Below are positions 7,346 to 64,000 of a stretch of 64,000 bases of DNA, piece after piece. The notes under the pieces are model-generated. The model searched no databases. It saw nothing but the letters and a program-made list of their open reading frames with translations, and had not been told where the DNA came from. The translations under genes and the position numbers were made by a program. The DNA is from a virus: the IMG/VR virus record IMGVR_UViG_3300042453_004296, positions 6,015-70,014 of that record; one strand, given 5' to 3'. Numbering within the stretch: position 1 is the stretch's first letter; each line of letters starts with the position of its first letter.

Positions 7346-8641
7346 TTAAGAAAGCAAATTTTCAGCTACATAAATTCCTTGTGCTCCACTAACTGTAATA
7401 CCACGAGCAGATAAAGCATCTCCCACAAAGTGCACATTAGGATAATCTACTAATGCTAGGTTTTTATAGTCTACTAATGGCTCAGGGCTTAAGTATTTTA
7501 CTTCAGGGATGTAAATTCCATAGTCGTTTCTAAATTCAAATATTTTGTTCATTTGGTCAATGAAATCAGTAATATATTTAGCATATTCACCCATTGCTTC
7601 TTCAAATACTTTTAAATTTGATATTTGGGTAGCTGATACTTTAGTACCTTCAGATGTTAGGCCTGGTGTTCTAGATGGGCTATAGTATAATCCTTTATCA
7701 TCAATTTGTAATTTTTTAACTACATTTCTTGACCATTCAAATGGATTTTCAATGCCTTTAATTTCCATCAAAATACCAAAGTTAGTCATATCATTACGAT
7801 ATTGTTCACCTTTTTTAGCATGACCATTGTAACTAATATCACCATATGTTTCTTCTACTGCTACATAAGCTGCGTTATTGTTAGTACAGAATGAACGTAA
7901 TGATACATTATTGAATTTTTGGTATAATTTAAAATCATAACTAATATCAATTAGTTTTTGGAAGTATTTTTGTGGTGCTTCAAAACGAACTCCAATTTGT
8001 ACCGATTTAGGTTCTGTTGGTAAGTTATAATTATCTGCTAATTGCTTACCAAAATCAATACCTGATTTGCCTACAGCAAATATAAGTTTGTCATAATCAT
8101 AATAGTCTGCTAATTTAGGATCTTCACATACTGTTATTAATTCTTGTTTTTGGAAATTAATATCAATAACTTCAGTTTCCCATTCAAATCTAACACCTTT
8201 ATCAACTAAATATGAATACCATGTTTTAGCAATTTCATGTAGATAATTTGAACCAATATGCCATACTGGGAATAAGCGTAATCCAAAGTATGGTTTAATG
8301 AAATCAGGTTCTGCTTGTGGGTCAGAGCAAAATATTTCTTCTGGTTTAGGATGGAAACGTCTAAAGTTACTAATAACTTGGTCCATTAACTCCATTGCTT
8401 TCTCTTCACCACAATACTTTGATAGTACACCTCCGATAGCAGTGTGGTATGTTAATTTACCATCTGACCATCCACCAGCACCTAGCATACCTGTCATTAC
8501 TTCTTCAGGTAAACGATTATGTGGGTCATTTCCTTTGTCTATAATGGTGATTAACTCACCTGGGTAGCCGTTATCGACTAATTTTGTTGCAGCATTTATG
8601 CCCGCTACACCGGCGCCTATAATTACTATTTTCTTGTTCAT
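7346..8641 (-). CDS. FAD-dependent oxidoreductase (uncharacterised dehydrogenase family)
   Basis: Rossmann GAGVAG, GAGGWSDGKL, RSFCTN, NGH and C-terminal FVGDA motifs. Confidence 0.88.
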   Translation of the reverse strand: MNKKIVIIGAGVAGINAATKLVDNGYPGELITIIDKGNDPHNRLPEEVMTGMLGAGGWSDGKLTYHTAIGGVLSKYCGEEKAMELMDQVISNFRRFHPKPEEIFCSDPQAEPDFIKPYFGLRLFPVWHIGSNYLHEIAKTWYSYLVDKGVRFEWETEVIDINFQKQELITVCEDPKLADYYDYDKLIFAVGKSGIDFGKQLADNYNLPTEPKSVQIGVRFEAPQKYFQKLIDISYDFKLYQKFNNVSLRSFCTNNNAAYVAVEETYGDISYNGHAKKGEQYRNDMTNFGILMEIKGIENPFEWSRNVVKKLQIDDKGLYYSPSRTPGLTSEGTKVSATQISNLKVFEEAMGEYAKYITDFIDQMNKIFEFRNDYGIYIPEVKYLSPEPLVDYKNLALVDYPNVHFVGDALSARGITVSGAQGIYVAENLLS

Positions 8642-61606: not shown

Positions 61607-61879
61607 TTATAATTCTGGTTCACTTGGTGTTTCTTCCTTTTTCTTTTTACTTGGGGAAGAGAATTTATCTAACGTATCAGCTCCCATTCCTATAGCTGTT
61701 ATGATTAATACAGCATCAACCAAATTATCAGCTGGTGCAAAATCAGCATGAGAAAATGAGTTAATAGTCATAGTCGTGCTTAAAAATAAAGAACCAAGTA
61801 ACGCGATTACTGGTTTAACTGAAGTTGAGCCACGTTCATCTTTAAATAAATCGATGACCCATTGTTTAAAATTCATCAT
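61607..61879 (-). CDS. Small two-TM membrane protein (holin-like topology)
   Basis: Two hydrophobic helices and a charged C-terminal tail. Confidence 0.6.
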   Translation of the reverse strand: MMNFKQWVIDLFKDERGSTSVKPVIALLGSLFLSTTMTINSFSHADFAPADNLVDAVLIITAIGMGADTLDKFSSPSKKKKEETPSEPEL

Positions 61880-61958: not shown

Positions 61959-62765
61959 TTATGCTGCAACAGCAAACTCGGCTGCTAATTCAAACAATTT
62001 TGCATTTAAATCTAAATCCTGCTTAAAGTTTTTAATCTTACGTGCCTTACGAACCTTGGCTCCAGCAGTATAACTAAACATACCTTGAGTGATTTTCTCT
62101 TGGATCACATTAAACACACTCCATAAGTCAGTACCTCGGTCTTCAGGGCGAGTTGGCTCAACTAATTCATTGTAGTCGATTCTGATGTTTTGGGTTTGTT
62201 CTCCAAAACGAACTTCAACTGCACGTCGAGCTAATTCGATAATTTGTTCTTGTGCTAATTGGGTTTGTTTGAAGCTATTCATTGACTCAACTGTAAGTGG
62301 TAATGCGGCAACGATTCCTGTGATTACACCTTGTAGTTTTTCAAAGTCATAACCAAAGTGACGGATTCTCATATTCTCAAATTCTTGGGTTGAAATTACT
62401 AAACCATTCTCACAAACCATTCTAAATAAACCAGCAGTGAAAGTAAATGAATTTTTACCATCATGGCTGTTTGTTAACAAGATTTGTGGGAAAACATCAT
62501 CACCATCTTCACCTTCAATGAATAAATCATTATTTCGGAACACAACTAAGTGTTTTTGATAACCTTCGCCTTTACGGGCTTTAACTTGTTTAGCATCAAC
62601 TACACCCCAACCTAATGCTTCCATATCTTGGATTATTCGGTTTGTAGGTATGTGTGAGTATTTTTCACTGGTGTCAGGTGCACCTTTAGCTGTGAAAATT
62701 GAACTTGCTTTCTCACGAATCTGTGATTCGGTTAAGAATTGGTTGTTGTTTAAATCTAGTGGCAT
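61959..62765 (-). CDS. DUF932/DUF945-family protein
   Basis: ILLTNSHDG..F.F.AGLFRMVCENG and DLWSVFNVIQE motifs; own early promoter at 62793. Confidence 0.85.
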   Translation of the reverse strand: MPLDLNNNQFLTESQIREKASSIFTAKGAPDTSEKYSHIPTNRIIQDMEALGWGVVDAKQVKARKGEGYQKHLVVFRNNDLFIEGEDGDDVFPQILLTNSHDGKNSFTFTAGLFRMVCENGLVISTQEFENMRIRHFGYDFEKLQGVITGIVAALPLTVESMNSFKQTQLAQEQIIELARRAVEVRFGEQTQNIRIDYNELVEPTRPEDRGTDLWSVFNVIQEKITQGMFSYTAGAKVRKARKIKNFKQDLDLNAKLFELAAEFAVAA

Positions 62766-62829
62766 AACCTTTATTATTTTTAATTATGCTATAAATGTAC
62801 GACCAAGTTCCTGTGGAGCCAAATAAGTA

Positions 62830-63483
62830 TTATGGTTTTTTTTCAGAAGCGTACTTAACCCCCATTATAGTACCTACTATACTAAATGAGTTGGTTAATA
62901 ATATACCGAACATGTTAGACCAGGCTGAGCTAAGGATAGTGGTGTCGAATCCCATTGTTAGAGCAAAAACATACATCCCAGTTGTAACGATACCCACACC
63001 TAAAATAATATATAGAGCTACTTTAACAATGCTGTTTATTAATTCGAATTGAGTTTTCTTCTGCATTAAGTCTAAGTCATTTTCAGCTGATAATTTAGCG
63101 TTTTCAGCTACTCTTAATGCTTCCCTTAATTCAATATCCATCTGTTCATTCTCTTCCTTCCACTCCAACAACTCTTTATTTTGACACTCAATTTGTGCTT
63201 TAGATGTCTCCATATCAGCTAAAGATATTTGAAGTTCTTGCATTAACTTCTCATTTTGTTCCTGAGCGTTAGTGAGTTCTGTATTTTGAGTTTGAATACG
63301 TTTAGTAATGTCTAAACGCTTACGTCTATTCTCTTTATCTTTATCAGCACATACTTTTAAGTACTCAGCAAACTCAGTATCATCCTCAGGATCAATTAGT
63401 TTCAGAATATTACCCTCAAGACATATATTTTTTGTCTTGTATAGATTTAATAATTGTTCTTTTGTAACCTTTCCTACTATCAT
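62830..63483 (-). CDS. Coiled-coil protein with two C-terminal TM helices
   Basis: Long heptad region then two hydrophobic helices; TAATG-coupled to the receiver gene. Confidence 0.8.
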   Translation of the reverse strand: MIVGKVTKEQLLNLYKTKNICLEGNILKLIDPEDDTEFAEYLKVCADKDKENRRKRLDITKRIQTQNTELTNAQEQNEKLMQELQISLADMETSKAQIECQNKELLEWKEENEQMDIELREALRVAENAKLSAENDLDLMQKKTQFELINSIVKVALYIILGVGIVTTGMYVFALTMGFDTTILSSAWSNMFGILLTNSFSIVGTIMGVKYASEKKP

Positions 63484-63935
63484 TATCTATATACTTTAAA
63501 TGAAGCTGTTCTAGCCTCATATGCTGGGTAATCCTTTCTAAATTCCTCTAATCGTGGCTCAATATCATCTGATTTAATGATCCAAAATTGGGCTCCAGCT
63601 TGTACTGCTTTAGCTTGCTCTTCAGCTTCATTGCTTGATGATATAATTCCTATCACTACATGGTTACCATACATAAAATTAATTCTACGAATCAATTCAA
63701 TACCATCAAATGAAGATCCTATGATATTCAAGTCAACAAATACACATTTTGGTTTATCAGATATATCACCGGTATCAAACCATTTTTTAAATCGTTTCTC
63801 TGCTTCATCAGCACTGTTTATAGCTTCCAAAGACAAAGTTATGTCTAATAAACTACAAGCATCTTCAAATACCAAGTGGAATAAATCCTCATCATCTACT
63901 AATAAAATAGATTCAATCATGTTCAAGTCAGTCAT
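63483..63935 (-). CDS. Stand-alone response regulator receiver (CheY-like)
   Basis: ILLVDDE, phospho-acceptor in VFVDLN, DGIEL, ISSS and AGA..WIIK motifs. Confidence 0.9.
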   Translation of the reverse strand: MTDLNMIESILLVDDEDLFHLVFEDACSLLDITLSLEAINSADEAEKRFKKWFDTGDISDKPKCVFVDLNIIGSSFDGIELIRRINFMYGNHVVIGIISSSNEAEEQAKAVQAGAQFWIIKSDDIEPRLEEFRKDYPAYEARTASFKVYR

Positions 63936-64000
63936 TTTTAATTTTAATTTTCATTTTAGTTCCTACATTGTTTCCTTCGCAACTTAATTTAAAACCATGC
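63928..64000 (-). CDS. C-terminal end of a probable histidine kinase (HATPase_c), partial
   Basis: Frame reads ..HGFKLSCEGNNVGTKMKIKIKND*, similar to the HGG.I..ES..G.GT.F.I end of HATPase_c; only 23 codons visible. Confidence 0.55.
   Translation of the reverse strand, partial: HGFKLSCEGNNVGTKMKIKIKND

Follow-up and report, generated by a model that had tools for sequence, protein, structure and literature searches.

A phage-encoded kinase and receiver coupled to a two-transmembrane-helix protein, with lysis regulation as a candidate output

Lysis timing sets the burst size and fitness of a phage, and to our knowledge few adjustments of it have been described, namely antiholins produced from the holin gene itself and the lysis inhibition of phage T4 that is triggered by superinfection. 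Of the T4 antiholins, RI is periplasmic and RIII is cytoplasmic. Here we describe a module at positions 62830–64000 of a 64,000-nucleotide stretch of DNA (hereafter the window) from IMG/VR virus record IMGVR_UViG_3300042453_004296, which encodes the end of a histidine kinase, a stand-alone receiver and a coiled-coil protein with two transmembrane (TM) helices. We propose that the module may join two-component signalling to lysis control of the antiholin type, both of them known kinds of system, on an effector family that has not been described. To simplify the presentation we will refer to the coiled-coil protein as CC-2TM and to its membrane-embedded part, with or without other domains attached, as the two-TM module.

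In passages of PMC11413866 that deal with T4 lysis inhibition, the antiholin RI is described as acting on the holin T, with superinfection as the trigger. The module proposed here would resemble that system in that lysis is delayed in response to a signal through proteins acting on the holin, and the large terminase encoded in the window is T4-like. The resemblance is one of role only, as RI and RIII show no sequence or profile relation to CC-2TM in Pfam or PHROG. The inputs also differ, a periplasmic antiholin that senses superinfection in T4 as against a kinase phosphorelay or a fused PAS or GAF sensor here, and CC-2TM, a cytoplasmic stalk joined to a two-TM hairpin, is unlike the T4 antiholins in its architecture.

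A second comparison is provided by the staphylococcal LytSR system, which is host-encoded and works at the level of transcription through a regulator with a DNA-binding output. Parts of PMC4830213 and PMC5717393 present LytSR as a two-component system that controls the holin/antiholin-like Lrg and Cid proteins and is tied to membrane status. The phage module shares with it the linkage of a two-component system to holin-like membrane proteins, although there is no sequence relation between them and the DNA-binding output is not shared by the phage receiver, which consists of the receiver domain only. Because this receiver lacks an output domain and is translationally coupled to a membrane protein, control in the phage would be exerted by protein contact.

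The two-TM effectors of CBASS join cytoplasmic sensing to a small membrane-disrupting TM module, and such abortive-infection designs have the same sensor-plus-TM logic as the fused forms of the two-TM module described below. Unlike CBASS, however, the module is phage-encoded and is found beside endolysins and holins, and PADLOC gave nothing beyond one match of CC-2TM to Cas1fv (21.5 bits), which covers the coiled coil and which we read as spurious. In the main texts of the literature searched we found no phage two-component system and no PAS or GAF domains tied to lysis genes. The jumbo-phage survey PMC7824862, in the portions that concern receivers, places a divergent receiver in NAD-related systems and not in histidine-kinase signalling.

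Kinase, receiver and membrane protein are encoded in a fixed order

A preliminary description of the window had reported three overlapping or coupled genes at this position, encoding a C-terminus that resembles HATPase_c, an intact receiver with its DD, D, S and K residues but no output domain, and a long coiled-coil protein with two TM helices. Each of these assignments holds. The three genes are as follows.

62830–63483, minus strand: CC-2TM effector, 217 aa, with a small N-terminal domain (invariant E-G-N), a long helix, a two-TM hairpin and a short basic tail
63483–63935, minus strand: receiver of 150 aa, a single-domain response regulator extended at its C-terminus by about 25 aa
63928–63999, minus strand: C-terminus of the kinase, 23 sense codons and a stop, cut by the end of the contig, reading HGFKLSCEGNNVGTKMKIKIKND before the stop

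The start of the receiver gene overlaps the end of the kinase gene by 8 nt, and the start of the CC-2TM gene is the final base of the TAA stop codon of the receiver gene, an overlap of 1 nt. Related loci show that this arrangement is maintained. We use for comparison the best 80 of 535 receiver relatives in IMG/VR, with open reading frames (ORFs) called and clustered and the window end included, and refer to them as two-component-system (TCS)-type loci; individual loci are given L numbers. At all of the 76 loci with at least 700 nt of downstream sequence CC-2TM follows the receiver directly, the gap being −4 nt in 63, −1 nt in 8, +3 nt in 4 and +6 nt in 1. The kinase directly precedes the receiver at 70 of 73 loci, the exceptions being L023, L024 and L066, the last of which has a YceI-like insert. 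Genes for YceI-like proteins (141.9 bits for the L059 copy) are seen at two positions, upstream of the kinase (L059:7554–8099) and between kinase and receiver (L066:9468–9992). A separate sample was selected through the TM motif of the effector. It contains 75 effectors with the small N-terminal domain, 72 of which have enough sequence upstream to be judged, and in 70 of these 72 the next gene upstream is that of the receiver. When the CC-2TM profile was scanned over one genome per species for 185,579 species, only 8 contigs were recovered, all of them from metagenome bins. Four of these contigs carry kinase, receiver and CC-2TM, and wherever an effector with the small N-terminal domain is found in such a contig the kinase and receiver lie upstream of it (4 of 4).

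The receiver is barely above threshold in its match to Pfam Response_reg (PF00072; 32.9 bits against a cut-off of 30.2, E 8e-8), and its residues D14, D15, D68, S99, W118 and K121 are invariant in 49 distinct receiver sequences. Its AlphaFold2 model is a (beta-alpha)5 fold (pLDDT 82.4, pTM 0.75) with the catalytic residues at the expected strand ends, and a Foldseek search with this model gave 405 PDB matches at E <= 0.001, with response regulators first and 4zyl, 6xvu and 1i3c at the top. No output domain is seen either by Pfam or in the model. The closest described proteins are regulators of the phytochrome and CheY type. The phytochrome-type regulator 4zyl is similar to the receiver with an E value of 4.3e-7 and a TM-score of 0.70–0.73, 3ilh is the best PDB sequence match among natural proteins (8.8e-7), and Rcp1, RcpA, RPA3017, D. 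radiodurans BphR and CheY have the same combination of a stand-alone (beta-alpha)5 fold, phospho-acceptor residues and a C-terminal extension. However, regulators of this type are only 16–27% identical to the receiver, and their partner is the flagellar switch or a kinase whereas a phage membrane protein is the proposed partner here. Relative to CheY, the receiver has what we take to be a 9-residue insertion before beta3, as counted from the sequence with the customary CheY numbering. Mean column identity is 83% for the receiver (49 sequences) and 65% for CC-2TM. Neither of the other two proteins is as strongly conserved as the receiver, which would fit a hub that touches several partners.

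The truncated kinase can be assigned by way of L002, a relative with a 97% identical receiver and a complete kinase of 435 aa. The gene order at L002 is an endolysin (PG_binding_1 and Glyco_hydro_19), an unassigned 272-aa protein, a 359-aa PAS kinase, a 210-aa secreted protein, the 435-aa kinase, the receiver and CC-2TM. The 435-aa kinase ends in the same 23 residues as the window's kinase tail, which is 76% identical to the tail of the PAS kinase. Judged by this tail, the window kinase is of the membrane-anchored histidine kinase type. The 435-aa kinase begins with a signal peptide or anchor and also contains a periplasmic region and a TM segment. It scores 48.1 bits with HATPase_c (cut-off 26.4), within kinase scores of 48–57 bits for this family. 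It also carries the kinase motifs that the preliminary description had suggested looking for upstream, namely an H-box (YLEHA..I.RHDMHSGINTY, of which RHDMHSGIN is invariant), an N box, G1 (DNGxG) and G2 (GLGL), and these are conserved in 54 distinct kinase cores. A lack of kinase motifs upstream, which would have counted against the preliminary reading, is not what the relative shows. No Pfam HisKA family matches either of the L002 kinases at E <= 0.1, and for this reason the dimerisation (DHp) region is judged to be divergent. The alignment with the solved kinase HK853 (4jas, 3dge) begins just past the H-box, and the spacing of His232 to the aligned segment matches that of H260 in HK853, as counted from the alignment with the usual HK853 numbering. 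The sensor domains of the TCS-type phage kinases are GAF-PAS-PAS, GAF-PAS, PAS-PAS and PAS. The 210-aa signal-peptide protein encoded between the two kinase genes (L002:8072–8704) has no family and is kept in two-kinase loci; it may be a periplasmic co-sensor.

In CC-2TM, TM1 (approximately residues 152–177) and TM2 (approximately 184–209) are separated by a loop of 6 residues. The AlphaFold2 model (pLDDT 80.9), which bears out the long helix and two-TM hairpin, has two short N-terminal helices, an unbroken helix from 36 to 177 that continues into TM1, a turn, and a helix from 182 to 212; its pTM is 0.30, the protein being essentially a single long helix. Because there is no periplasmic domain and the loop is so short, CC-2TM must exert its effect inside the inner membrane, its sensor side facing the cytoplasm. 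Small and polar residues are conserved in both TM helices, these being V-G and T-T in TM1, and W-S-N, L-L-T-N, F-S-I, G-T-I and G in TM2. A search of the protein atlas returned unnamed viral clusters only, and scans of viral contigs with the divergent effectors P0234, P0182 and P0175 gave no loci.

It had also been suggested that the receiver be modelled in complex with the coiled coil. Complex prediction with the receiver and residues 1–150 of CC-2TM gives a score of 0.42, as against 0.01 for the best of three controls, with contact agreement between runs of at least 78% and a partner pLDDT of at least 85. In calibration, 58 of 80 solved complexes and 2 of 110 mismatched pairs attain the mark, but with scores of 0.60 or less only 7 of the 80 solved complexes do so, together with both of the passing mismatches. 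The prediction favours the pair over the controls but lies in this low-score band, and gives weak support to a contact between receiver and effector.

The record from which the window is taken is an IMG/VR virus of 70,014 bases, classed as linear and estimated to be 44% complete. The window corresponds to its bases 6015–70014, so that the final base of the window is also the final base of the contig. Phage hallmark genes in the window are those for a portal (phrog_213, 205 bits), a large terminase (phrog_2, 173 bits) and a baseplate wedge. The large terminase shares 61.7% identity with its counterpart in Flavobacterium phage vB_FspM_immuto (160 kb), with T4-like and cyanobacterial myoviruses more distant. 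Lake-water metagenomes contain the stretch, and proteins encoded at related loci have the SprB, PKD and CHU_C domains of type IX secretion sorting. Taking the terminase kinship, the sorting domains and the lake-water occurrence together, the phage appears to be a T4-type myovirus of a freshwater Bacteroidota host. Two of the proteins encoded at related loci look like host-like surface proteins, a 740-aa secreted protein with SprB repeats, PKD domains and a CHU_C sorting domain (L010:4587–6809) and a 1225-aa protein whose C-terminus is similar to it by eye (L170:3603–7280). Within the window, a 431-aa ORF at 7346–8641 matches phrog_12409 (annotated as dehydrogenase, 93.4 bits) and may be an auxiliary metabolic gene.

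Sensor-fused forms of the two-TM module and their lysis-gene neighbours

The other four contigs found with the CC-2TM profile (L085–L088) are without receiver or kinase. Instead they encode a protein of 371–385 aa in which two PAS domains (PAS_3, 78–88 bits) precede a short coiled coil that leads to the same hairpin of two TM helices; this hairpin is approximately 60% identical to the two-TM module of the window. The TM2 motif W-S-N...L-L-T-N-x-F-S-I-x-G-T-I-x-G-x-K-Y is invariant. There are 180 relatives of the PAS-fused effector in IMG/VR, and neither a receiver nor a kinase is found in any of 80 PAS-fused loci. When a profile of the hairpin was searched against 1.84 billion representative proteins, it gave 114 clusters at E <= 0.001. 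Among those inspected, one form has a single PAS domain, one has a GAF domain (64 bits) and one has a partial SOUL heme-binding domain. In this last protein, P0131, the partial SOUL domain (71.4 bits) stands before the two-TM module, and it may represent a heme-sensing variant or a truncated gene call.

Because the TCS-type kinases bear the same kinds of sensor as the fused effectors, the family looks like a single output module that takes its input from a fused sensor ("one-component") or from a kinase and receiver ("two-component"). The fused effector and the L002 PAS kinase share only 23% identity in their PAS domains, which rules out a recent transfer of the PAS domain between them. Neither the receiver nor the L002 kinase found a match when searched by tblastn against 50,697 records of cultivated phages, among which is vB_FspM_immuto, the closest by terminase; the family is therefore without members in that collection.

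The surroundings of the fused effectors are those of lysis cassettes. In 66 of 80 loci the PAS-fused effector has a homologue of a peptidoglycan hydrolase no more than 750 nt away, and these hydrolases are of three unrelated types, namely GH19 enzymes, GH24-like lysozymes and a domain without a name, the last of which is fused to PG_binding_1 in L088. Pfam holin homologues (Phage_holin_4_1 and Phage_holin_10) are present in 27 of the 80. Matches to the two holin families in the effector cassettes score 45.2 and 28.3 bits for Phage_holin_4_1 and 63.5 bits for Phage_holin_10. If the family of a 90-aa two-TM protein described below is added as a third class, at least one of hydrolase, 90-aa family and Pfam holin is found in 76 of 80 loci. 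Overlapping spanin-like genes are seen in L087 and its relatives, and all three GAF-fused loci adjoin a small two-TM protein, a GH19 hydrolase or both.

Lysis genes are also found around the TCS-type loci. The flanks of 54 of these 80 loci encode a hydrolase homologue, and at least four arrangements occur. The homologue comes directly after CC-2TM in 32 of the 80, with one gene between in 2, and upstream on the opposite strand in 11. In the nearest relatives of the window, L002–L005, the endolysin gene lies just upstream of the kinases on the same strand. A holin of the Pam3-gp28 family (63.5 bits) follows the endolysin in L008, and homologues are placed likewise in 15 further TCS-type loci.

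In the window itself, two further genes lie downstream of the module.

61959–62765, minus strand: DUF932 protein, between the effector gene and the 90-aa gene (DUF932 99.2 bits, phrog_12094 141.5 bits)
61607–61879, minus strand: small two-TM protein, 90 aa, with a charged C-terminal tail and holin-like architecture

A two-TM protein at 61607 had been mentioned in the preliminary description, and it corresponds to this 90-aa ORF. The protein has no Pfam or PHROG family. An HMM of its own family finds matches in 71 of 84 PAS-type loci and in 17 of 85 TCS-type loci, and the family is the commonest neighbour of the fused effectors, lying within 200 nt of them in 62 of 80 PAS-fused loci. The order of effector and DUF932 gene recurs in L219 and L245, where a Pam3-type holin homologue comes next on the other strand; we list the DUF932 protein as a neighbour of the module.

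Several other genes near these loci may be mentioned. A domain of about 200 aa without a Pfam family (L088:8663–9472, L004:5585–6181) is otherwise found by itself, as a rule on the opposite strand and just upstream of the kinases; in L088 it sits behind PG_binding_1 at the position of the endolysin, and it is probably an undescribed catalytic domain of a peptidoglycan hydrolase. The lysozyme adjoining the PAS-fused effector in L086 (6335–7012), which we take to be GH24-like by its motif, has a C-terminal hydrophobic segment and a basic tail and may be a membrane-anchored endolysin. At 15 loci, including L023 (3398–5263), a full-length homologue of DnaK/Hsp70 (621–630 aa, judged by eye) is encoded a few genes downstream of the module.

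Proposed control of lysis and competing explanations

The preliminary description had envisaged a circuit with a membrane protein as its output, for example in lysis timing, and the fixed gene order, the sensor fusions and the lysis cassettes of the relatives support this. From the gene context we favour a phage phosphorelay whose output is a signal-gated regulator of lysis in the inner membrane, either holin-like or antiholin-like, and consider the chances for and against it to be evenly balanced. According to this proposal the module would control a membrane protein of the lysis apparatus post-translationally. The membrane histidine kinase would autophosphorylate on the His of its H-box, as would the second, cytoplasmic PAS kinase in the nearest relatives, and the phosphate would then pass to Asp68 of the receiver. 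The phosphorylated receiver would bind the cytoplasmic N-terminal domain of CC-2TM or its stalk, and the signal would pass down the unbroken helix until it reaches the two-TM hairpin in the inner membrane. There the hairpin would help or hinder hole formation by a holin, with the consequence that lysis occurs earlier or later depending on the signals received by the kinases.

A number of observations weigh against this proposal. The receiver is not upstream of the effector in L208 and L213 (2 of 72), and the L213 record, which is 177.5 kb long and 74% complete, has no receiver match anywhere. CC-2TM belongs to no Pfam, PHROG or PADLOC family and has no homology to known holins or antiholins in Pfam or PHROG. 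A search for longer forms of the effector found no fusion of receiver and CC-2TM, which is weak evidence of absence; the sole longer form, P0121, was considered as such a fusion and set aside, its N-terminus being unrelated. No hydrolase homologue is found in the fetched flanks of 26 of 80 TCS-type loci, some of which are incomplete. Neither the window nor the 70-kb contig as a whole, which is estimated to be 44% complete, encodes an endolysin or holin of the tested families, and because of this the link to lysis for the window's own phage rests on its relatives. The counts given above come from loci that are interdependent and not dereplicated (of 78 receivers 49 are distinct, and of 78 CC-2TM sequences 50), and the gene overlaps may be exaggerated, since ORF starts were set at the most upstream start codon. 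RNA evidence for the module is negligible: library X22 has two 151-nt contigs in CC-2TM, X23 has one 152-nt contig with 10 differences in the receiver, and contigs in the DUF932 gene come from X23 and X24, but such libraries can contain DNA and matches in them are no proof of transcription.

Two alternatives, both of which we regard as unlikely and to about the same degree, retain some support. The first is a variant of the proposal itself, in which CC-2TM is the holin, that is, the pore former, and the small two-TM proteins or Pfam-type holins are antiholins or accessory proteins. The conserved small and polar residues of both TM helices would suit a pore, and there are 16 PAS-type loci at which no Pfam-type holin homologue stands beside the effector, the small two-TM protein and the GH24-like hydrolase. 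However, recognised holin families occur in the same cassettes, which is why we favour a regulator over a pore former, and we know of no holin that resembles a sensor-bearing protein of 217–385 aa. In the second, the module reprograms host physiology by cross-talk or as a phosphate sink, CC-2TM is a mere anchor or scaffold, and adjacency to lysis genes is an inherited order. This would agree with the kinase-like and receiver-like families of cultivated phages (phrog_857, phrog_10912, phrog_731), with the 26 TCS-type loci that lack a flanking hydrolase homologue, and with the contig of the window, where no hydrolase is seen. It leaves unexplained, though, why PAS and GAF fusions of the two-TM module exist that have no kinase or receiver, why hydrolases of three types lie within 750 nt of the fusions in 66 of 80 loci, and why CC-2TM adjoins the receiver at every one of 76 loci.

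Somewhat less probable again is a role in superinfection control, whereby the kinase would sense the disturbance of the envelope by a second phage and CC-2TM would block DNA entry or signal exclusion. The kinase adjacent to the receiver, with its signal peptide or anchor, periplasmic region and TM segment, has the layout for such sensing, and so might the secreted 210-aa protein encoded between the L002 kinases be placed for it; moreover, as T4 lysis inhibition is itself described in passages of PMC11413866 as triggered by superinfection, the two functions can be linked. Against this, the kinases of most relatives have cytoplasmic GAF or PAS sensors and the sensors of the fused forms are all cytoplasmic, while the periplasmic loop of CC-2TM, at about 6 residues, cannot reach the parts of an incoming phage.

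The possibility raised in the preliminary description that host DNA had been misassembled onto the phage, and with it that of a chance arrangement of ORFs, has in its favour the position of the module at the extreme end of the contig but is for practical purposes refuted, and the module is phage-encoded, since all 36 of the window ORFs of at least 200 aa lie on the minus strand, the GC content of 62001–64000 (0.341) falls within the window's own range (0.294–0.416), portal and terminase genes are present, the module is internal in viral contigs of up to 304 kb with phage genes on both sides, a receiver relative is encoded by 535 of 559 candidate stretches in IMG/VR, which argues against chance, and the 8 contigs recovered from species genomes are spread over scattered phyla.

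Possible sensory control of lysis in lake phages

Beyond the window, we put forward with less assurance than the regulator itself, and as a tentative view that falls a little short of an even chance, that the relatives make up an undescribed family of signal-gated lysis systems. Such a family would be built around the two-TM inner-membrane module, found so far almost only in phages of freshwater Bacteroidota, and driven either by fused sensors of the PAS, GAF or heme type or by a kinase-receiver phosphorelay that can combine periplasmic and cytoplasmic input. Two membrane-protein families, represented by CC-2TM and the small 90-aa protein, are also defined by the analysis, together with a putative hydrolase domain for the cell wall; none of the three has a Pfam or PHROG entry.

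If the proposal is correct, the moment of lysis would be computed from the physiological state of the host, by a second route to conditional lysis timing that is mechanistically unrelated to T4 lysis inhibition, and the phosphorelay would be the first known to act directly on a lysis protein. It would likewise assign a role to one of the stand-alone receivers, for most of which no output is known. The reading of host or environment by a phage before lysis would become testable with four or five genes, and a modular, sensor-controlled switch for membrane lysis would be available. A large group of abundant lake phages, with 535 receiver relatives and 180 relatives of the PAS-fused effector, would then govern lysis by means of sensory domains and a phosphorelay.

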